Notes: generated by a model not told the origin, from the letters alone. A stretch of DNA of 64,000 nucleotides from Gammaproteobacteria bacterium (GCA_965221955.1 CBDCTA010000029.1:96001-160000); one strand, 5' to 3'; counted from the stretch's first letter, positions 6,412 to 54,283 are shown. Translations and numbers: made by a program.

Positions 6412-6999
6412 ATGAGAGAGTTTATAAGCGACATTGCATTTACCGATACGGTTAAAAAGATTCAAGAACAAAAAGGCTCTAGAACCATCTATGAACGCGC
6501 AGAAGAATTTGGTGGTTGGGAAAATATCGTAACAACTAAATTAAAAAAGTTTCTCGCTGAACGAGATTCTTTTTATATGTCTACAGTTAATAGTGAAGGC
6601 TATCCTTATATACAACATCGAGGTGGACCGAAAGGATTTTTGAAAGTAATTGATAAACACACCTTAGGGTTCGCCGATTTTTCAGGGAACCGTCAATATA
6701 TTTCTTATGGAAACTTAGAAGATAATAACAAGGTCTGTTTATTTTTTATGGATTATCCCAACAGGATGCGTATAAAACTTTGGGGCACTGCTGAAATAAA
6801 TGAAGAAGACAAAACATTAATTAATGAGCTCACGGTATCAGGATATAAAGCTATTGTTGAGCGTGCGTACCTTATTCATGTAGAAGCGTGGGACCGAAAT
6901 TGTCCTCAGCACATAGTGCCTAGATATACAAAACAAGAAATCGAAGATTTAGAGGTTTGTACTGGATGTGAACCTGAGCACAAGGATGTGCGAATATGA
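6412..6999 (+). CDS. Pyridoxamine 5'-phosphate oxidase-like FMN-binding protein
   Basis: PYIQHRGGPKGF, ADFSGNRQYIS and NCPQHI motifs. Confidence 0.88.
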   Translation: MREFISDIAFTDTVKKIQEQKGSRTIYERAEEFGGWENIVTTKLKKFLAERDSFYMSTVNSEGYPYIQHRGGPKGFLKVIDKHTLGFADFSGNRQYISYGNLEDNNKVCLFFMDYPNRMRIKLWGTAEINEEDKTLINELTVSGYKAIVERAYLIHVEAWDRNCPQHIVPRYTKQEIEDLEVCTGCEPEHKDVRI

Positions 7000-7027
7000 G
7001 TAGCGTCTTGGATGATGCGAACAGATT
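6975..7027 (+). repeat. Twin GGA-hairpin leader repeat, copy L1
   Basis: TGAGCACAAGGATGTGCGAATATGAGTAGCGTCTTGGATGATGC..CAGATT; 33/44 identical by hand to 36279-36322. Confidence 0.75.
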
Positions 7028-7084
7028 AGAGTTAGGTAAGTTAAAATGATGCACAGGTTGGGAAATTCTAATCAGATTAATAAA

Positions 7085-7112
7085 ATGACTGCTAACGACC
7101 CAAAGCGGACAT
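7085..7112 (+). repeat. 28-bp palindrome, type B
   Basis: ATGACTGCTAACGACCCAAAGCGGACAT; GGTTGG ends 24 bp upstream, as in the array junctions. Confidence 0.9.
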
Positions 7113-7132: not shown

Positions 7133-7402
7133 ATGAAAGATTTTTCAGTAGCAATATTAATTGGGCTTCTCGTCATTTCTTTACTAGGTATTGGCATAAG
7201 CTATTTTATTTCCATGCTTACAATGATATCTAATCACGATGAAGACAAAGGGTTAGTTATATTAAATTTTTTTCCTGTGTTTAAAACAGATACATTGAAC
7301 GAGAAAGGTGAAAAGGCAAGACGGGTATATAATAAATCGTTATTGGCATTTGCGATTTGGCTAATTGTCGCTTTAGCTTGCTATGTGGTTTTTAATTCTT
7401 AA
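7133..7402 (+). CDS. Small two-TM hypothetical protein (cassette cargo)
   Basis: 89 aa, two hydrophobic segments; sits between a B and an A palindrome. Confidence 0.7.
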   Translation: MKDFSVAILIGLLVISLLGIGISYFISMLTMISNHDEDKGLVILNFFPVFKTDTLNEKGEKARRVYNKSLLAFAIWLIVALACYVVFNS

Positions 7403-7430
7403 ATGTCTGCTATTGGCCGAATGCGGACAT
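7403..7430 (+). repeat. 28-bp palindrome, type A
   Basis: ATGTCTGCTATTGGCCGAATGCGGACAT directly after the TAA of the cargo ORF. Confidence 0.9.
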
Positions 7431-35485: not shown

Positions 35486-36220
35486 ATGCCTCGACCTACC
35501 AAAGCAAAATTTACTGAATTTAATTTACCTGCTGGTCGCATTATTGCAAAGAAGTATGAGGTGCTTTCTAAGCTAGGTGGCGGGTTTGAAGGTGAAGTGT
35601 ATAAAATACGTGAAATTAGCACAGGGATTGAGCGCGCAGCCAAATTATTTTATCCCAATCGCAATGAAAAGGATCGAGCGGTAAAGTTTAATGCACAAAA
35701 GCTGCATAAACTCAGACAATGTCCAATACTGATTCAGTACCACACAAAAGAGAATTTTGTTTTTAAAAGAACTCCAGTTACGGTTCTAATATCAGAATAT
35801 GTTGAGGGACAACTGCTTTCTGAATTTATTAAAAGCTTTCCTGGTAAACGTCTTACCCCTTATCAAGCATTGCATTTGCTCTATGCATTAACTCAAGGTA
35901 TCGAGTGCATACATAGCCTGAATGAATATCACGGAGATTTGCATTCCGATAATGTCATCGTCAATAAATTTGGCTTAGAATTTGATTTGAAATTAGTTGA
36001 TTTGTTTTCTGCAAAAGAACCTAAACATGAAAGCCGTAGATTTGATATTTTAACTTTGATTCAAGTGTTTCATGAGTCATTAGGTGGAGCTAAGCACTAT
36101 GCAAAGCATCCTGATCCAATCAAGTATATTTGCTGTGGCCTAAAATCAAATTTAATTTTAAAAAAATTTAAAACTGCAGGCCAATTACGAAGACATATTG
36201 AAAGCATGGAATGGTCATGA
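35486..36220 (+). CDS. Compact Ser/Thr protein kinase-like protein
   Basis: LGGGFEGEVY, AAK and HGDLHSDN. Confidence 0.8.
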   Translation: MPRPTKAKFTEFNLPAGRIIAKKYEVLSKLGGGFEGEVYKIREISTGIERAAKLFYPNRNEKDRAVKFNAQKLHKLRQCPILIQYHTKENFVFKRTPVTVLISEYVEGQLLSEFIKSFPGKRLTPYQALHLLYALTQGIECIHSLNEYHGDLHSDNVIVNKFGLEFDLKLVDLFSAKEPKHESRRFDILTLIQVFHESLGGAKHYAKHPDPIKYICCGLKSNLILKKFKTAGQLRRHIESMEWS

Positions 36221-36255: not shown

Positions 36256-36377
36256 ATGTCCGCTTACGACCCAAAGTGTGAGTCCATGGATGGGCGAATA
36301 TGAGGTGCAACAAGGATGTTGCTTCAGATTCAATATTTCTTTTATTAGAATGTCCGCTTACGACCCAAAGCGGACAT
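36256..36377 (+). repeat. Array start: truncated B (36256-36276), leader L2 (36279-36330), full B (36350-36377)
   Basis: ATGTCCGCTTACGACCCAAAG; TGAGTCCATGGATGGGCGAATATGAGGTGCAACAAGGATGTTGC; ATGTCCGCTTACGACCCAAAGCGGACAT. Confidence 0.88.
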
Positions 36378-36461
36378 TAAGTCTTACAATATTTCATGTT
36401 ATTACATAGTAATATTTTCTAACGCTTTAACCTTCTTGCTTCTCCATCTACTTCATTTATA

Positions 36462-36475
36462 TTGATGTATATCAA
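36462..36475 (+). promoter_or_regulatory. Canonical FNR box
   Basis: TTGATGTATATCAA, a perfect TTGAT-N4-ATCAA, with a TATAAG -10-like hexamer at class II spacing. Confidence 0.75.
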
Positions 36476-36547
36476 TAGACATCAGGTTTAACGTGTTATA
36501 AGAATTTAAGCATCAAGGGATAAGGGGATTGTTTATGGAGAGCAACT

Positions 36548-36807
36548 ATGAAACTCAATCCAATTATTCTGGGAATCTCGAGCGCAATCACAACCGCAAT
36601 TTTATGGGTCATCTGTAGTTTACTCGTTGTCACCTTACCAGGGTTCATGATGAAATGACAGCAGGGATGATGCATAGTGACATTACTACAATGAATTTCA
36701 CACTAACTTGGCCAGGGTTTATTTGGGGTCTTGTAGCTTGGGTTGTATGCGCAGGTATAGCTGGTTGGTTAATTGCAATAATTTATAATCGATTGTTACC
36801 AAAATAA
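36548..36807 (+). pseudogene. DUF5676-like small membrane protein with 1-bp frameshift
   Basis: MKLNPIILG..LWVICSLLV..PGFMMK, then MTAGMMH..LTWPGFIWGL..YNRL in a shifted frame; one A missing at ~36655. Confidence 0.65.
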
Positions 36808-36899
36808 CGATGTGATCAAGAGATTGTAAATCTGGATGTCTAGTTTTATTTTATGTGTTTGATGTTAATTTCAAATTTAGTATTAAGGAGAATACTGTA

Positions 36900-37037
36900 A
36901 TGCACGGTGATGGTGGATTTTTCACGCATTGGGGATTTGGGTTTGGTCATTGGTTTCTTGGTGTTTTGCTATGGTTTATTGTCATACTTGTAGTTGTACT
37001 TTTAATAAGAACGGTATTTAAGACTGATAAACATTAA
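36900..37037 (+). CDS. Small single-TM protein (45 aa)
   Basis: AAGGAG RBS; MHGDGGFFTHWGFGFGHWFLGVLLWF. Confidence 0.6.
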   Translation: MHGDGGFFTHWGFGFGHWFLGVLLWFIVILVVVLLIRTVFKTDKH

Positions 37038-37059
37038 GTAGGCTATCAAAAACATACTC

Positions 37060-37575
37060 ATGAGAATCCCTGAGAAAAATGTAAATAAAACTGCATGGTA
37101 TTTACGTCCATTTTTTTGGAATCAACGTAGAAAATATGGGCAAGTGCTAACCCCAGCGCTGCTTTGGGCAAGGGTGCCTAAGCTTTTTATGGCAGTAGCC
37201 ATTTTATATGGTGAATTGCTATAAAAAACAGTCCATTAGACCCTGTCTGCGTTCTTTGGTAATTCACAAATAAATTGGTGTCACTGTTGAGCTTAATTCC
37301 GCCACATTAGCAGAAGCGAGCTGGTTCGAAAATATTCAGAAGCCATTGGAAAGAAAGTGAACTGTTTAATGACAAAGAAAAATGGTAAATGGAATAATGT
37401 AGAAGCGATTACATATTCATCAACAATAGTGCTTGAATTAACGAAACCGTCTGCTAGAGTTCTTCAGTGAAGATGCGGTAGTGGAGCTCACTGGCTCATC
37501 GCCTTTCAAAGTCTATCTAGTAAATTTACATTCGCTCAGGGGTTTTGTAAGCTTCCTCAAGAAAAAGTTCGGTAA
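37060..37575 (+). pseudogene. Carboxymuconolactone decarboxylase/AhpD-like gene remnant
   Basis: MRIPEK..WYLRPFFWNQRRKYGQVL.PALLWARVP, then fragments SQINWC, EDAVVELT and QGFC in shifting frames. Confidence 0.7.
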
Positions 37576-37618
37576 ATAAAAGCTGCAAATAACTAGTTCA
37601 CTTCATAGATTAGATTGA

Positions 37619-37712
37619 ATGTCCGCTATTGCCGAAAACTCAAACTTAAAGGGGAATTTAAGGTTGGATCTCAAAATAACTAATATGACTGCTTACGACC
37701 CAAAGCGGGGAT
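37619..37712 (+). repeat. Degenerate A-spacer-B junction
   Basis: ATGTCCGCTATTGCCGAAA..AGGTTGGATCTCAA..ATGACTGCTTACGACCCAAAGCGGGGAT. Confidence 0.85.
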
Positions 37713-37959
37713 TTAATTTCTTAATTTCTCAAGTTTTCCTGTTCTTGTTTATTCATACGATTTTAATGGAAATAAACTTGGTGATACATGTGAAAAAGCT
37801 ATTAGGATGAATTAAATTCTGGGCTTCTCAGCTTCCTAGTTATGAGAACTATCTTGGTAGAGCCATCAGGCATGTATTTTTTAACTATGAGGGCCTTGAA
37901 ACATAGCTAGATACGATTGTATAAAAACGTAATTAAGCGCCAAGATTTAACATTTTATT

Positions 37960-38247
37960 TTGATTCATTTGGCTGCCCTACCACATTTTGAAAGCTATAA
38001 AATTTCCGAGAGAATAAATAGGAAAGTTTATGATAGTCAGGAGCAAACCGATAACTTGAACAGAGATATACTTGATATGTTAGCTCCCGTAAGACGTTGG
38101 AGTATATGGGTAGAAGAAAAAGATAAAACAGATTTAATTTTATTTAGATATGAAGGTATGTGGAGACTTTTTTTGAGAACAAAAATTACATATCCACAAA
38201 TGGAAAAATCAAGGGAGCTATCGCTGGTAGTAGGTTTAGACCTTTAA
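37960..38247 (+). CDS. Hypothetical cargo ORF or remnant
   Basis: 95-aa ORF ending 19 bp before an A palindrome; the upstream part looks disrupted. Confidence 0.35.
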   Translation: MIHLAALPHFESYKISERINRKVYDSQEQTDNLNRDILDMLAPVRRWSIWVEEKDKTDLILFRYEGMWRLFLRTKITYPQMEKSRELSLVVGLDL

Positions 38248-38266
38248 TATGTAACAACATAATGAA

Positions 38267-38367
38267 ATGTCCGCTATTGGCCGTAAGCGGACAAAAAAAG
38301 GGACGCAATGTGTTGGAATCAATAAATTACAAACATAAAATGTCTGCTAACGACCCAAAGCGGACAT
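38267..38367 (+). repeat. 101-bp A-spacer-B junction with IHF consensus
   Basis: A 38267-38294; AATCAATAAATTA (WATCAA-N4-TTR) 38317-38329; B 38340-38367. Confidence 0.92.
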
Positions 38368-38389
38368 TAGGTATATTTAAAAAATTATC

Positions 38390-38725
38390 ATGAGCATCTT
38401 AATAGTACGTATAACCTGCTTTTTTTGGGCGATTGCTTGTTTAGTAATTTTAGTTTTATCTTACGGGTCAACTCCAGTCACTAAACTTTCTACTGAAATG
38501 GCAATGACTGCAATTGAAGAAAAGTATATAAATTTTGCATCTATGTCCGATAAACAGCGAGAAAATTATAATTTTCTTTCAAATTGGGTGCGTGGGAATG
38601 ATAAAGGTTTTAAAAATTCCTCAATGTTTCGTCATAAACTTATCTTGATTGTGACTCTAGGTTCATTATTGATTTGCTTTTATATTGCTTTTTTCATGCG
38701 AAATTCAAACAAAGCTAATAATTAA
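38390..38725 (+). CDS. Two-TM hypothetical protein (cassette cargo)
   Basis: 111 aa; starts 22 bp after B and ends 15 bp before A. Confidence 0.7.
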   Translation: MSILIVRITCFFWAIACLVILVLSYGSTPVTKLSTEMAMTAIEEKYINFASMSDKQRENYNFLSNWVRGNDKGFKNSSMFRHKLILIVTLGSLLICFYIAFFMRNSNKANN

Positions 38726-38740
38726 AATTAATTGAATTAG

Positions 38741-38841
38741 ATGTCCGCTATTGGCCGAAAGCAGTCATAAATTGAGACGAACGAGGTTGGATTCAATGCT
38801 TTATACGTTCAAAATGTCAGCTAACGACACAAAGCGGACAT
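38741..38841 (+). repeat. 101-bp A-spacer-B junction
   Basis: ATGTCCGCTATTGGCCGAAAGCAGTCAT..AGGTTGGATTCAATGCTTTA..ATGTCAGCTAACGACACAAAGCGGACAT. Confidence 0.92.
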
Positions 38842-38872
38842 TGACGTTTTTCGACATAAGATTTTAATCTTT

Positions 38873-39421
38873 GTGTTAATGAGCAAGATTATTTCTATAT
38901 GTATTTTGATTTACCTGCTTACAGGTTGCACAGTACCGTGGTCATTTGATGCATCTGATAAACCATATGCTAAAAATATGACAAATCAATGTTATCAATT
39001 AACTAATGATGCTTTTCTAATACAACCGTGTGAACCGCACCCCTCCATAGCAGATTCAACATTGATAGATCCAGAAGGTTTTGAGCCACACTGCACTCCA
39101 CCAAATATAAGTGTTTATAATAAAGACCCTAGTAAGTGGAATAATATTTGTGATGAGTCTAAACGAACTTTATGGACAATAGGTTGCCGTTACAGAGTTT
39201 CAATGGCTCTTCCTAAGGGCTCAAAATTTAAAGTTACTAGAATAATTAATATGACGGGTGGAGGTCCTAGATTTTGGAAAGTAAGTGCTACCTTAGTAAA
39301 TTCTAAAGATGAATTTGAAATTTTTGGTTCATGGCTAAATCCAAGATTTTTTGCCTCAATTAATCCCAAACAAAATTTAGAAATTCTTAATAAATATGCT
39401 AAAGCCTGTACAAACTACTGA
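38873..39421 (+). CDS. Cys-rich putative lipoprotein (cassette cargo)
   Basis: Lipobox LLTGC; stop codon overlaps the next A palindrome. Confidence 0.75.
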   Translation: MLMSKIISICILIYLLTGCTVPWSFDASDKPYAKNMTNQCYQLTNDAFLIQPCEPHPSIADSTLIDPEGFEPHCTPPNISVYNKDPSKWNNICDESKRTLWTIGCRYRVSMALPKGSKFKVTRIINMTGGGPRFWKVSATLVNSKDEFEIFGSWLNPRFFASINPKQNLEILNKYAKACTNY

Positions 39422-39518
39422 TCGCTATTGACCGAAAGCGGACATAAAATAGGATCAAATAGGTTGGATTCAATCTCATACAAGAGGAAAATGTCTGCTT
39501 ACGACCCAAAGCGGACAT
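39418..39518 (+). repeat. 101-bp A-spacer-B junction
   Basis: CTGATCGCTATTGACCGAAAGCGGACAT..AGGTTGGATTCAAT..ATGTCTGCTTACGACCCAAAGCGGACAT. Confidence 0.92.
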
Positions 39519-39629
39519 TCAAATTAGCTAAAATTTGCTCTTTGTCAATTTTAAGAGACAATATGATCCTATTATTATAGTTATGTGGCCTTCAATTTTG
39601 AGCGGCCGATAACTAAAGGAGGTGCTAAG

Positions 39630-40012
39630 ATGAAACTTAAAATCATTTTGGTCATCAACGCTATTGTCGTAGCAATATTTGGAATTGCATTAGTGCTTAT
39701 ACCAGCACAGCTTCTGTCCTTGTATGGCATCACGGTGGACACCCATTAAAATATATGGCGCAGCTATTTGGGGCTGCTCTTATTGGATTTGCCGTGTTGA
39801 CCTGGTCGGCCAGAAACTCCAGTGATTCCGGTGCGCGTAGGGCAATTATCCTTGCATTATTTGTGACCGCTGCAATCGGCTGTATTGTGGCTGTACTTGG
39901 TGCACTTGCAGGATTTATGAATCCTCTTAGCTGGTCAACAGTAGCAATTTACTTGTTTTTTGCAGCAGTCTTTGGATATTTTCAATTTGCTCGACCAACA
40001 ACTTCGTCGTGA
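39630..40012 (+). pseudogene. Four-TM membrane protein with 1-bp frameshift (cassette cargo)
   Basis: AAGGAGG RBS, MKLKIILVINAIVVAIFG..LYGITVDT, then MAQLFGAALIG; one C missing in the C run near 39743. Confidence 0.65.
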
Positions 40013-40105
40013 TGAGATACTCAGTTTAAAAAGCACAGAGCTACAATAACATCAATTACGAAAAATGAGGTCCTAGCGGATGCTTAAATGACACGTATCA
40101 ATTAG

Positions 40106-40133
40106 GCATCCGCTATTGGCCGAATAGCAGACA
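40106..40133 (+). repeat. Type A palindrome (degenerate)
   Basis: GCATCCGCTATTGGCCGAATAGCAGACA. Confidence 0.8.
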
Positions 40134-40389
40134 AAATAGCATAATATTTTCGATTTATGTTTGCGGATTGTGGGGGCAGAGCATCCCACGAATTTGTACT
40201 TGCTTTTCTGCGTTTCCTCAATCCATGCGATCTCAACGCACTCATATTATTTGCTTTGGGTAATGTTCTGTTTCAGTCCCTCGAAATCGAACTTAGTTCC
40301 GTTTACCCCACGCACCGACTACTCTAGTAAGACATTTAAAATTGCAAAAGGTTTAGTGTATTTATTTTCTTTGAGTACAGTAATATTGC

Positions 40390-40417
40390 ATGTCCGCTTA
40401 TGGCCGAAAGCGAACCT
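40390..40417 (+). repeat. Type A palindrome, array end
   Basis: ATGTCCGCTTATGGCCGAAAGCGAACCT. Confidence 0.8.
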
Positions 40418-52243: not shown

Positions 52244-52271
52244 ATGACTGCTTTCGGCCAATAGTGGACAT
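52244..52271 (-). repeat. Type A palindrome (minus strand)
   Basis: Reverse complement ATGTCCACTATTGGCCGAAAGCAGTCAT, 27/28 identical to the A at 38741. Confidence 0.9.
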
Positions 52272-52448: not shown

Positions 52449-53402
52449 ATGGAAAATAAGGATGTGAAGCTCGTGAGTGTAGATAATGTTGTGGACAATA
52501 CACTTGAATCTTCATTAGATATGGATAGCTCAGCAGAGTTAATAATGAATACTGCTGAAGATGTGTTAACTAAAGAAGAACTACTTGAGCTGCAATCATC
52601 ACGTGACTTTTTTGGTCTACTAAAAAAGAAAGATTATAGCCTTAAAAAATTTAAAAAAGCCCTTGCATATGAAGAAGATCTACGTTTACTACAAGGTGAA
52701 CTGGTAAAACTACAGCGTTGGGCACAAGAAGAACAACGTCGTATTGCGATAATTTATGAAGGGCGTGATGCTGCTGGAAAAGGTGGAACCATACGACGTT
52801 TTGTAGAACATATGAATCCTCGCGCGATGCGAATTGTTGCATTACCTAAGCCAAGTGAAGATGAAGTGGGTCAATGGTATTTTCAGCGTTATGCAAAACA
52901 ATTGCCAAACAAAGGTGAAATCGTGTTTTTCGATCGTAGTTGGTATAACCGTGCGGTGGTGGAACCCGTCAATAAATTCTGCACAGAAAAGCAATATAAA
53001 CAGTTTATGCGTCAAGTGCCGGAATTTGAGCACATGCTCTATGAAGATGGTATAGATCTAATAAAATTCTGGTTTTCGATATCTAAAGAAGAACAGCTTA
53101 AGCGATTTAAGTCGCGTGAAACTAACCCTTTAAAAGTATGGAAACTTAGCCCAATCGATAAACGCGCACAAGAATTATGGGACGACTATACGAAATACAA
53201 GGAGAAGATGTTTAGTCATACACATACTACATTTAGCCCCTGGATTATTGTACAAGCAAATAGCAAAAAATCTGCACGACTAGAAAGTATCCGCCATGTG
53301 CTCTCGAACTTTGATTATGCTGGAAAAGATAGTGCCATCAGTCTTCTGCCTGACCCAAATATCATCATGCGTTATCATCGTTCAACTACGCATATCGACT
53401 AG
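52449..53402 (+). CDS. ppk2: Polyphosphate kinase 2
   Basis: EGRDAAGKGG, QWYFQRY and FDRSWYNRA. Confidence 0.95.
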   Translation: MENKDVKLVSVDNVVDNTLESSLDMDSSAELIMNTAEDVLTKEELLELQSSRDFFGLLKKKDYSLKKFKKALAYEEDLRLLQGELVKLQRWAQEEQRRIAIIYEGRDAAGKGGTIRRFVEHMNPRAMRIVALPKPSEDEVGQWYFQRYAKQLPNKGEIVFFDRSWYNRAVVEPVNKFCTEKQYKQFMRQVPEFEHMLYEDGIDLIKFWFSISKEEQLKRFKSRETNPLKVWKLSPIDKRAQELWDDYTKYKEKMFSHTHTTFSPWIIVQANSKKSARLESIRHVLSNFDYAGKDSAISLLPDPNIIMRYHRSTTHID

Positions 53403-53448: not shown

Positions 53449-53542
53449 GTGTCTGCTTTGGGTTGTAAGCAGACATTTTAAATAAGAATTAAATCAGTTG
53501 CGGCATGAATGCTGTAACTCTTATTCGCTATCCCTATGCTCA
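53449..53542 (-). repeat. Leader L3 (53542-53492) plus type B palindrome (53476-53449), minus strand
   Basis: Reverse complement TGAGCATAGGGATAGCGAATAAGAGTTACAGCATTCATGCCGCAACTGATT..ATGTCTGCTTACAACCCAAAGCAGACAC. Confidence 0.8.
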
Positions 53543-54283
53543 CCAATAACTCTCTGTAGTGATATGCCCAGGGCTGCGGCGTAAATTTTTCTTAAGTCCT
53601 TTTTCTTTTAACGCATTACGTGTATCAACCAACATGTCAGGATTACCGCACATCATCACTTGAGAAAACGTAGGTGATATTTGTAATTTAGTCTTTTCTT
53701 CTAAACTCTTATTTTCAATTGCAGCAGGTATGCGACCAGGCATTGCAAAATTAGTTTCTTCTCGACTTACAAATGAAACCATTTGGAATCGGTCTTTAAA
53801 TTCTTTCTCAAAATTTGCAATGGTATTTTTATATGTCAGTTCATTTGCAAACCGAACAGCATGCACTAAAACAATATTTTCAAAACGATGCCATACTTCT
53901 TCAGATTTAAGAATGGATAAAAAAGGTCCAAGAGCAGTGCCAGTTGCCATCATCCACATATCACGGCCTTCTGGTACTTCGTTTAATGTAAAGAAACCAT
54001 TGACCCGTTTATCAATGTAGATTAAATCACCAGCACGTAATTCTGCGAGTCTTGGTGAAAGCGGGCCTTCAGAAACTGTGATGGAGTAAAACTCTAGCAG
54101 TGATTCATGTGGTGCATTTACAAATGAGTAAGGTCGTCCAACGATTTGGTCACCAATTTCTAAGCCAAGTCTTCCGTATTGGCCCGCAGTAAACGGGTCA
54201 ATATCTGCTTCTATTTGAAGAGAATAAAGCAAATCTGTCCAATGCTTATTCTCGATAACTTTTCCTTTTACCCAATTACTCAT
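53540..54283 (-). CDS. fpr: Ferredoxin--NADP+ reductase
   Basis: FTAGQY, RPYS, GPLSPRL, ATGTALGPF, MCGNP and C-terminal ESYW. Confidence 0.93.
   Translation of the reverse strand: MSNWVKGKVIENKHWTDLLYSLQIEADIDPFTAGQYGRLGLEIGDQIVGRPYSFVNAPHESLLEFYSITVSEGPLSPRLAELRAGDLIYIDKRVNGFFTLNEVPEGRDMWMMATGTALGPFLSILKSEEVWHRFENIVLVHAVRFANELTYKNTIANFEKEFKDRFQMVSFVSREETNFAMPGRIPAAIENKSLEEKTKLQISPTFSQVMMCGNPDMLVDTRNALKEKGLKKNLRRSPGHITTESYW

Follow-up and report, generated by a model that had tools for sequence, protein, structure and literature searches.

The 64,000-nucleotide stretch of DNA analyzed in this work (the window, C29:96001-160000) carries at three places a motif of two short hairpins with GGA in their loops, each time at the edge of small gene cassettes, and the question raised by this locus is what such a motif is and what it does there. 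The earlier note, made from the window alone, had taken it for a leader shared by the three cassette loci, which would serve either as an attI-like entry site or as a host repeat of the REP kind that the cassettes target, and had pointed to the likeness of its loops to CsrA/RsmA sites. The assembly to which the window belongs comprises 2.69 Mb in 29 contigs with 38.6% G+C and is 96.6% complete with 4.3% contamination. Its host is an uncultured marine bacterium.

Direct reading of the sequence bears out the motif, in the following called L, at positions 6975-7027 (+), 36279-36330 (+) and 53542-53492 (-), referred to as L1, L2 and L3. The common core consists of GTGAGC, hairpin 1, GCGAATAWGAG, hairpin 2 and CAGATT. 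The central GCGAATANGAG occurs three times in the window, always at an L site, where 2.7 occurrences are expected, so that this count alone is not above chance. The compensatory changes quoted for L1 and L2 are correct, the stems being GCACA/TGTGC and GCGTC/GATGC in L1 and GTCCA/TGGGC and GCAAC/GTTGC in L2, and in both the twin hairpin is the minimum-energy RNA fold (z -0.9 for L1 and -1.8 for L2). L3 had rightly been called more degenerate: its minimum-energy fold is not the twin hairpin (z +0.3), and GGA is gone from its second loop. A fourth, degenerate copy faces L3 across an island containing a PPK2 gene. In addition, a variant named long L exists in which extra GGA hairpins are inserted within hairpin 1 while the outer stem is retained. 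The A-T pair adjoining the loop is frequently disrupted (6 of 37 and 15 of 37), and the loop is therefore best read as a hexaloop A-N-GGA-T/C closed by a C-G pair.

L is a structured 60-base module of two hairpins that is kept by compensatory change. An HMM and then a covariance model built from 37 copies of the same genome (R1) were used to scan the entire genome, and R1 yielded 64 matches at E<=0.01. The tallies given below use 61 of these, the three weakest (E 0.0036-0.0086), including the degenerate partner of L3, being left out. With about 60 copies spread over the genome L is thus a dispersed repeat, and the notion of a leader private to three cassette loci has to be given up. Among the 37 own copies 85.6% of the stem cells are paired and 56 double-sided changes are seen as compared to 20.8 in shuffles, with none of 500 shuffles reaching as high a value; sliding the stem partners against each other abolishes the signal. 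Covariation was also seen in 38 copies from other genomes, which had not been used in building R1 and 16 of which were retrieved by a pattern fixing the inner part of hairpin 2: here 88.8% of the cells are paired, with 45 double-sided changes versus 11.9 and again 0 of 500 shuffles as high. The fold of single sequences is only moderately better than that of shuffled ones, with z values over the L copies from -0.8 to -7.6 and mostly between -0.8 and -2.9. Of the non-Watson-Crick stem cells on the L strand, 31 are G.T and 13 are A.C, an excess that is only suggestive of this strand folding as RNA or single-stranded DNA; the associated p of about 0.01 overstates the case, because the copies are related.

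The palindromes next to L, here called B, are 28-nt hairpins that bound gene cassettes. From 1776 regex matches, 217 with a loop similarity of at least 7/10 were accepted as B, and a looser first search with 1305 matches was discarded. By their loops they fall into two classes, B1 (..ACGACCCAA..; 119 copies) and B2 (..ATTGGCCGAA..; 98 copies), B2 being nearly an inverted B1. A cassette has the form B1-ORF-B2, its ORF oriented as the hairpins in nearly all cases, and adjacent cassettes are joined by B2, a linker, a module M (CAGGTTGGAA...) and B1; in the junctions read directly on contig C5 about 45 nt lie between the two 28-nt hairpins. The products encoded in the islands include GNAT acetyltransferases, M23 peptidases, OsmC, a Na/H exchanger, HSP20, globin, cyanase and PPK2. 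Many island ORFs are small and of no known function, the genes being otherwise ordinary accessory genes, and no transposase or recombinase was found among 96 island ORFs scanned.

All three L copies first described in the window are followed by a B hairpin, as had been stated. Genome-wide, B is found within 120 nt downstream of L in 33 of the 61 copies as compared to 43 of 5000 random places, the hairpins following L being B1(+) in 17 cases, B2(-) in 15 and B1(-) in one, at offsets of about 7 or about 45 nt. Rather than lying at hundreds of sites with no enrichment beside B, or losing its covariation as copies are added, L is hence a repeat of some 60 copies that is both covarying and associated with B. 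By placement, 42 of the 61 copies are terminal and point into a B cluster, three are internal, four point away, and for 12 no classed B lies in the vicinity. Among 35 clusters with at least two B hairpins, an inward-pointing L is present at an end in 18 and at both ends in seven, 14 are devoid of any L, and L copies converge (L> ... <L) in 14 of 38 L clusters. The islands follow the formula L> B1> [ORF B2> M B1>]n ORF B2> <L, with L as the outer cap. In the window the L3 island is capped at both ends, and L1 and L2 are single caps, each on the flank from which a gene reads inward (Table 1). The subtypes of L at the two ends differ, those with CGTC or CATC standing beside M-B1 and those with CAAC beside B2. 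A small unit L> B <L of about 185 bp is present at C29:575435-575617.

Table 1. Position of L, B and associated features in the window.
Feature	Position	Strand	Basis
L1, twin GGA-loop hairpin module	6972..7041	+	R1 C29:102972-103041, E 8e-15
Linker after L1: B2 left-arm remnant (AAAATGATGCAC) and M (CAGGTTGGGAAATTC...TAAAAT)	7042..7085	+	comparison with the cassette-less site of G014
B1 hairpin opening the one-gene cassette	7086..7111	+	
ORF of the cassette (89 aa, without Pfam family; lacking at the orthologous G014 site)	7133..7402	+	
B2 hairpin closing the cassette, just before an ampD-like gene	7404..7429	+	
B1 left arm and loop, 3' arm displaced by the L2 unit	36256..36276	+	
L2 unit: L core, 19-nt linker, new B1 left arm and loop	36277..36372	+	metagenome contig
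Intact B1 after L2; strain-variable array begins directly behind	36351..36376	+	
Cassette array of B1-ORF-B2-M units, ending in B2 at 40391-40416	36377..40416	+	
Degenerate L facing L3	52176..52238	+	R1, E 0.0086
B2 hairpin of the L3 island	52245..52270	-	
PPK2 (polyphosphate kinase 2) gene within the L3 island	52449..53402	+	Pfam PF03976, E 1e-95
B1 hairpin adjoining L3	53450..53475	-	
L3, decayed copy	53478..53545	-	R1 C29:149478-149545, E 3e-7

The history of the loci was analyzed by comparison with orthologous sites in relatives. In the units designated type a and b, a B hairpin is represented to the left of L by its left arm and loop only, and L is followed by a linker of 19-25 nt and a full B. 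The half B on the left and the full B on the right, read by eye, are different in four of five type-a loci and are thus not a target-site duplication. A metagenome contig from a related strain, which shares about 90% identity over 201 bases, follows the window as far as position 36276 and continues beyond it with the missing 3' arm of B1 and then with unrelated DNA, without L. From the contigs of the four runs compared with the window, this end at 36276 alone was used, as they leave most of the cassette array uncovered and most of their joints there have sides of under 30 letters in repeats. The left border of the L2 unit is thereby fixed between 36276 and 36277, and the unit is an insertion at the junction of loop and 3' arm of B1; its core as delimited by R1 spans 36276-36344 (C29:132276-132344). 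As far as can be judged from their sequence, the L junctions look like the hybrid junctions of site-specific recombination.

At the L1 locus the same gene is present in G013 and G004 with its own stop codon and a B2 40-50 nt further on, with no L between them. L is common to G014 and to G000, the genome of the window, and lies there between gene and B2; G011 has a stump of L only, and in the G014 ortholog the second stem is decayed. The 356-bp cassette found at this locus in G000 is missing in G014. The L2 locus also exists as a strain variant, on contig C10, which has 99.7% identity to the window through position 36378, then carries a different array of 1.4 kb and rejoins the window at the terminal B2. 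The sites in G013 and G004 with B2 alone, the metagenome contig and C10 lead to the conclusion that B was there first, that L was added beside it and that cassettes turn over at B. The earlier idea of a host repeat targeted by the cassettes therefore stands as regards a REP-like kind of repeat, but its direction seems to be reversed, L inserting at a pre-existing B. L units are found at two kinds of place, immediately at a host gene's stop codon or within B at the junction of loop and 3' arm, with an intact B following in fixed register. In the mechanism that we propose, insertion would remove the 3' arm of the outer hairpin, so that nothing further could enter outside L, and L would stay at the island border because this lost arm blocks further entry.

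What L may do at this border is suggested by its loops. The CsrA consensus obtained by SELEX, as given in a review (PMC7652899), is RUACARGGAUGU, with GGA in a hexaloop and AC and GU paired, and dual-site binding by CsrA is described there for spacings of 10-63 nt. The loops of L read ATGGAT, AGGGAT or AAGGAT, and in either hairpin a C-G pair closes them. Both hairpins fit CA-N-GGA-UG, hairpin 2 of the CAAC type reads ACA-R-GGAUGU, and the distance from GGA to GGA is 26 nt in L1 and in the alignment, within the published range. The likeness to CsrA/RsmA sites that had been noticed at the outset thus extends, at the level of sequence, to the SELEX consensus, and the genome has one csrA gene (C2:164402-164557; NCBIfam CsrA, 117.6 bits at a cut-off of 73). 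Perfect CA-N-GGA-TG hairpins number 81 in the genome, whereas shuffles contain 3-5 and four loops searched as controls gave 1-8. Of these, 41 are in L and most others in the sibling modules K and long L, which sit within B loops or beside L.

Furthermore, a single-copy locus at C22:244391-244690, whose hairpin loops contain some ten GGA motifs and which has an intrinsic terminator, is present in all 14 genomes of the genus, and in the 11 that were aligned over its full length the GGA loops are unchanged. It has no Rfam match and is a candidate for a conserved CsrB/RsmY-like small RNA with the same type of loop as L, for which reason we rank binding of CsrA at the RNA level above a pure DNA role. 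Binding of L RNA by CsrA is plausible. When the flanking gene is transcribed, L would be part of its 3' UTR and of read-through into the array, and its two CA-N-GGA-UG hexaloops, being 26 nt apart, would be expected to bind one CsrA dimer. Since L does not lie beside a ribosome-binding site, classical repression by CsrA does not apply; by analogy with CsrA elsewhere (PMC7652899), the bound protein could instead set RNA stability, Rho-dependent termination or the titration of CsrA at the island border. Our preferred reading, to which we give an even chance, is that L is a family-confined, non-coding repeat that rides on B, caps cassette islands and is putatively bound by CsrA in RNA, and that it is not attI-like.

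The most serious rival, which we regard as rather unlikely, holds that L is recognized as folded single-stranded DNA by whatever moves the B units, comparable to the subterminal hairpins of IS200/IS605 elements or to the arms of attC, its GGA loops being contacts for a protein other than CsrA. Much of the above would suit such an element: inverted L pairs bracket islands, the two island ends carry different subtypes, the units enter at a precise point of the B hairpin, the stems covary around fixed loops, and distribution and copy number are patchy, with decay at orthologous sites. However, among the families searched no enzyme able to move L or B was found in the genome. PF00589 is represented at four places, namely two xerD copies (by dsbC), xerC (by DUF484 and hslV) and a 437-aa phage-type integrase at C29:3369, none of them an integron integrase (IntI) and none beside an array. 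The Y1 transposases (RAYT family, PF01797) have no match in this 96.6% complete genome, the same search giving matches in 6 of 14 genomes as a control, and reverse transcriptase (RVT_1), IS110 and TnpB were likewise not found in the genome. A serine recombinase of 544 aa at C26:86441 is not linked to arrays. If the loops served a DNA-binding enzyme, it would be a strange coincidence that an 8-nt CsrA consensus occurs in both hairpins and in the otherwise unrelated siblings K and long L, and the excess of G.T over A.C suits RNA at least equally well. Moreover, B-bounded cassettes in lineages devoid of L already suggest that these cassettes move equally there. The units may also move by homologous exchange, following DNA uptake, between their conserved junctions.

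Ssn nucleases and SRM hairpins, the latter with a search pattern, as well as the dRS3 and NTS repeats are described in PMC11893778. The SRM pattern in the form given there has seven matches in the genome versus 2-8 in shuffles, which is at chance level, and none of the seven overlaps any of the 217 B hairpins, so that the SRM pattern does not fit B. Typically, such repeats flank a small GIY-YIG gene of the ssnA type. The sole small GIY-YIG ORF of the genome (82 aa, C28:159142-159390) lies beside folP, has no B in its flanks and received no NCBIfam name.

The position of L at gene ends is the basis of a second rival, in which L acts as a REP/BIME-like element of 3' ends that stabilizes or insulates the upstream mRNA or modulates translation termination, CsrA playing no part. 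In the window each copy indeed lies at the 3' end of a host gene, as had been claimed. ORF 6412-6999 has its final codons and its stop within L1, a distance of 58 nt and a half B hairpin separate L2 from the stop of ORF 35486-36220, and in L3 the TGA of GTGAGC is the stop codon of an ORF similar to ferredoxin-NADP reductase (fpr-like; 53540-54283, -). Throughout the genome 48 of the 61 L copies lie behind an open frame of 100 codons or more that has the orientation of L and ends between -300 and +45 of it, the tally being one of open frames and not of verified genes; in 10 of the 48 the stop codon is supplied by the TGA or TAA of G-TGA-GC, and four more stop inside L.

The stop position is kept between species. 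For the kinase-like gene upstream of L2, 8 of 11 relatives have a short, long or truncated L whose first bases are exactly the stop in TGG|TGA or TGG|TAA (three of the eight confirmed by R1), and in G000 this gene has its native stop with L 58 nt further. At the fpr stop L was confirmed by R1 in 5 of 13 relatives, with one or two more decayed copies recognized by eye. Judging from such orthologs, the location of L at stop codons appears to be old and long retained. Hairpin 1 at the fpr site varies across species (GCGC/GCGC, ACAT/GTGT, ACAC/GTGT, GCAT/ATGC), which reflects compensatory change at the site itself or else its replacement by sequence from other copies. The second loop is without GGA in four of seven fpr copies (G000, G014, G003 and G013), and this loss, which speaks against a strict function of L, would fit, together with the decayed orthologs of L1, the slow decay of a selfish repeat.

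The mosaic build of the units, too, resembles that of BIMEs, but we hold an RNA-end function of this kind to be quite improbable. The hairpins are short (5-9 bp) and weakly stable, most having the modest z values given above, and the invariant GGA loops would be left without explanation. In addition, 64 of 80 island ends face frames that read inward, whether or not L is present, and the co-orientation of L with its upstream gene is therefore mostly geometry plus tolerance of insertions in gene tails. L caps 36 of the 64 inward-reading ends versus 5 of 16 ends facing outward-reading frames, and flank orientation was discarded as evidence of an RNA role, being weak.

A third rival, namely that L is a primary recombination site like attI or a leader bearing a promoter, was the first option of the earlier note and is by now largely refuted; we consider it very unlikely. 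It could draw on the position of L before the first B in 18 of the 35 multi-B clusters and on the strain-variable array behind L2, and also on the spacing in type a/b units, where 17 nt separate TTCAGA, at the 3' end of L, from a TAGAAT or TAAAAT hexamer that abuts B. The M module behind L1 contains a promoter-like TTGGGA-17-TAAAAT. Promoter-like matches in L are, however, no more frequent than in shuffles (three found versus 2.2). IntI is lacking, the roughly 60 copies are often inverted and found at both ends, B arrays without L exist in this genome and across phyla, and B predates L at the orthologous site, all of which speaks against the entry site that had been proposed.

The taxonomic range leads to the same result. 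L is present in all 14 genomes of the genus with 4-64 copies each and is patchy in other genera of the family, with 27 and 1 copies in genomes of genus g18, 23 in g21 and 1 in g2, a match in 1 of 16 g23 genomes and no match in any of the 13 g3 genomes. Nor was L found in 149 further families belonging to the class. With a sequence pattern, L was also detected in a few further gammaproteobacterial MAGs labelled Thiotrichales, where B always follows. The exact 21-base B1 core occurs, among the matches listed, in alpha-, beta- and gammaproteobacteria, Nitrospina, Nitrospirae and Gemmatimonadales. Neither the L nor the B1 pattern has a match in viral contigs. By these matches L is a lineage-specific rider on a far more widespread B hairpin system, and since L is limited to the family while B is widespread without it, an essential attI-like role is excluded.

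Finally, it is hardly credible that every L copy represents a small RNA gene in its own right, of the CsrB/RsmY/TwoAYGGAY type, since despite its two AYGGAY-like loops and the weak, sub-threshold matches of the sibling K modules to RsmY (E 0.14-0.22), L overlaps coding ends, has no promoter or terminator of its own (no terminator was found in it) and no Rfam match (none at the gathering score in the whole window, only chance matches of snoRNA type at E<=10 for two L regions, and two sub-threshold RF01731 matches of 36.2 and 31.3 bits versus 43 elsewhere in the genome), while a separate conserved single-copy candidate for a Csr-type small RNA exists.

Returning to the reading that we prefer, a wider form of it can be tentatively put forward, although we regard it as doubtful: L, long L and K may be a mobile, modular family of CsrA-binding hairpins that has spread through gene tails, caps islands and wires recently gained cassettes, poor in promoters, into the Csr network. 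If this were true, the approximately 60 L copies and their siblings would form a distributed CsrA sponge beside a single dedicated Csr small RNA, and the 3' UTRs of genes neighboring the cassettes would be wired into the network as well. L would then be a mobile element that carries a post-transcriptional regulatory site instead of a gene, and the repeat would spread sites of a global RNA regulator in the way eukaryotic transposons spread sites of transcription factors. Apart from this, L shows where the islands of a cassette system that resembles integrons but has no integrase begin and end, and it should be helpful as a handle for mapping the islands in one lineage and for finding their mover. 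As a by-product, a candidate Csr-type small RNA is now available for an uncultured marine genus.

How does L compare to known systems? A search of the literature, also by sequence words, found no description of a B-hairpin cassette system. With REP/BIME and NIME/dRS3 elements, L and B share that they are short hairpin repeats located in gene tails, that they combine a small number of modules whose relative orientation is fixed, that they cluster around variable genes, and that they reach hundreds of copies with lineage-specific abundance. In a descriptive sense they belong to a REP/BIME-like class, being extragenic hairpins with linkers in fixed orientation that lie mostly at gene tails. In contrast to REP elements, no RAYT is present here, and L has loops of the CsrA type and caps whole arrays of gene cassettes.

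With integrons the islands have in common that small accessory or unknown genes, co-oriented and mostly poor in promoters, lie between conserved hairpin sites, that the content of the arrays varies by strain, and that inserted units carry most of the hairpin at their 3' side, which results in hybrid junction hairpins. The attC sites of integrons are imperfect palindromes of 57-141 nt with RYYYAAC ... GTTRRRY cores, and an integron platform has one attI, at the integrase-proximal end only. Here IntI is lacking, the sites are paired 28-nt hairpins (B2-M-B1) in place of attC of 57-141 nt, and dozens of small arrays occur per genome. When the junctions on contig C5 were read directly for attC cores, the only near-match was GTTGGAW, in M. 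L differs from attI in being multi-copy (61-64), inverted at both ends and dispensable.

The sponge RNAs CsrB, RsmY and RsmZ and the TwoAYGGAY RNA (RF01731) resemble L in their A-N-GGA-N hexaloops closed by C-G and in having two sites within the range of one dimer, whereas L is a dispersed repeat without own promoter or terminator and without a match to an Rfam model. MITE-like repeats such as ERIC, Correia/CREE, RUP and BOX are likewise non-autonomous, palindromic when paired, located in 3' intergenic regions and sometimes co-transcribed. Inverted L pairs do occur, and visual inspection of a few junctions showed no target-site duplication; unlike in MITEs, the ends formed by L are covarying structured modules, not terminal inverted repeats conserved in sequence, and the B center accepts gene cassettes. 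Overall, L fits none of the defined families fully, and its nearest known counterparts are the mosaics of REP/BIME and NIME elements, the cassette arrays of integrons and the ligand hairpins of CsrA.

The cassettes of the arrays (B1-ORF-B2, where B1 and B2 are the two loop classes of the 28-nt B hairpin) are joined by a module M. M carries TTGGAA or TTGGGA, followed by 17 nt and a TAAAAT-like hexamer, and it ends at the ATG of B1. An xAxxxT sequence is found at the position of this hexamer upstream of 78 of the 119 B1 copies. TTG is present at the -35 position before 46 of the 119, with a 17-nt spacer in 42 of these 46, and both elements precede B1 in 39/119 copies. M may be a cassette promoter, in which case expression of the cassettes need not rely on read-through.

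The exact B1 hairpin core (21 specified bases) is not restricted to this genome (G000, GCA_965221955.1). Among the matches listed (L118-L197), it occurs in Alpha-, Beta- and Gammaproteobacteria, Nitrospina, Nitrospirae and Gemmatimonadales, in both MAGs and isolates of widely different G+C content, and it often adjoins more hairpins of the form ATGTCCGCT..AGCGGACAT. Because one reading frame of the core can be read as a short peptide, spurious small ORFs recur in the window (e.g. 36278-36409).

The L2 locus of the window (the copy of the twin GGA-hairpin repeat L at 36279-36330, + strand) has a strain variant on contig C10 that carries different cassettes, and the xerD region together with part of an array is common to contigs C14 and C23. 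The assembly is therefore a mix of at least two strains, in agreement with its contamination of 4.3%. In three related genomes (G011, G014 and G001) a gene of ~190 codons is found instead of the minimal L palindrome, and in G010 and G004 the same flanks lie 5.6-9.5 kb apart.

Coordinates of the modules, motif matches and RNA candidate (contigs of G000)
Feature	Location	Strand	Remarks
Module M	window 7058-7086, and each B2-M-B1 junction (e.g. locus L072, C5:677-8611)		between cassettes
Module K	C22:41230-41490	-	GGA/GGAG hairpins in B1 loop
Module K	C17:40230-40480	-	GGA/GGAG hairpins in B1 loop
Module K	C3:17840-18140	+	GGA/GGAG hairpins in B1 loop
TwoAYGGAY RNA motif (RF01731), sub-threshold	C5:52065-52230	-	36.2 bits (gathering score 43)
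TwoAYGGAY RNA motif (RF01731), sub-threshold	C29:69046-69208	-	31.3 bits (gathering score 43)
Minimal palindrome L> B2-like <L	C29:575435-575617		~185 bp, between two convergent genes
CsrB/RsmY-like small RNA candidate, single-copy	C22:244391-244690 (L088:480-790), outside window	+	GGA hairpin loops, intrinsic terminator

A sibling module, K (~125 nt), has been inserted into the B1 loop immediately after L and M and adds four or five GGA or GGAG hairpins. The resulting composite is ~330 nt long and holds about seven GGA motifs. A K-type run of GGA hairpins was also observed immediately upstream of a tRNA gene (C2:170950-171330, + strand; tRNA at L090:425-498). The RF01731 match on C29 adjoins a B2 hairpin at C29:69219.

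K matches RsmY weakly (E 0.14-0.22). The single-copy small RNA candidate has no Rfam match; it carries ~ten GGA motifs, placed in hairpin loops, and is present in 14/14 genomes of the genus. Among the 11 genomes aligned over its full length the identity is 72-84%, and the GGA loops are unchanged.
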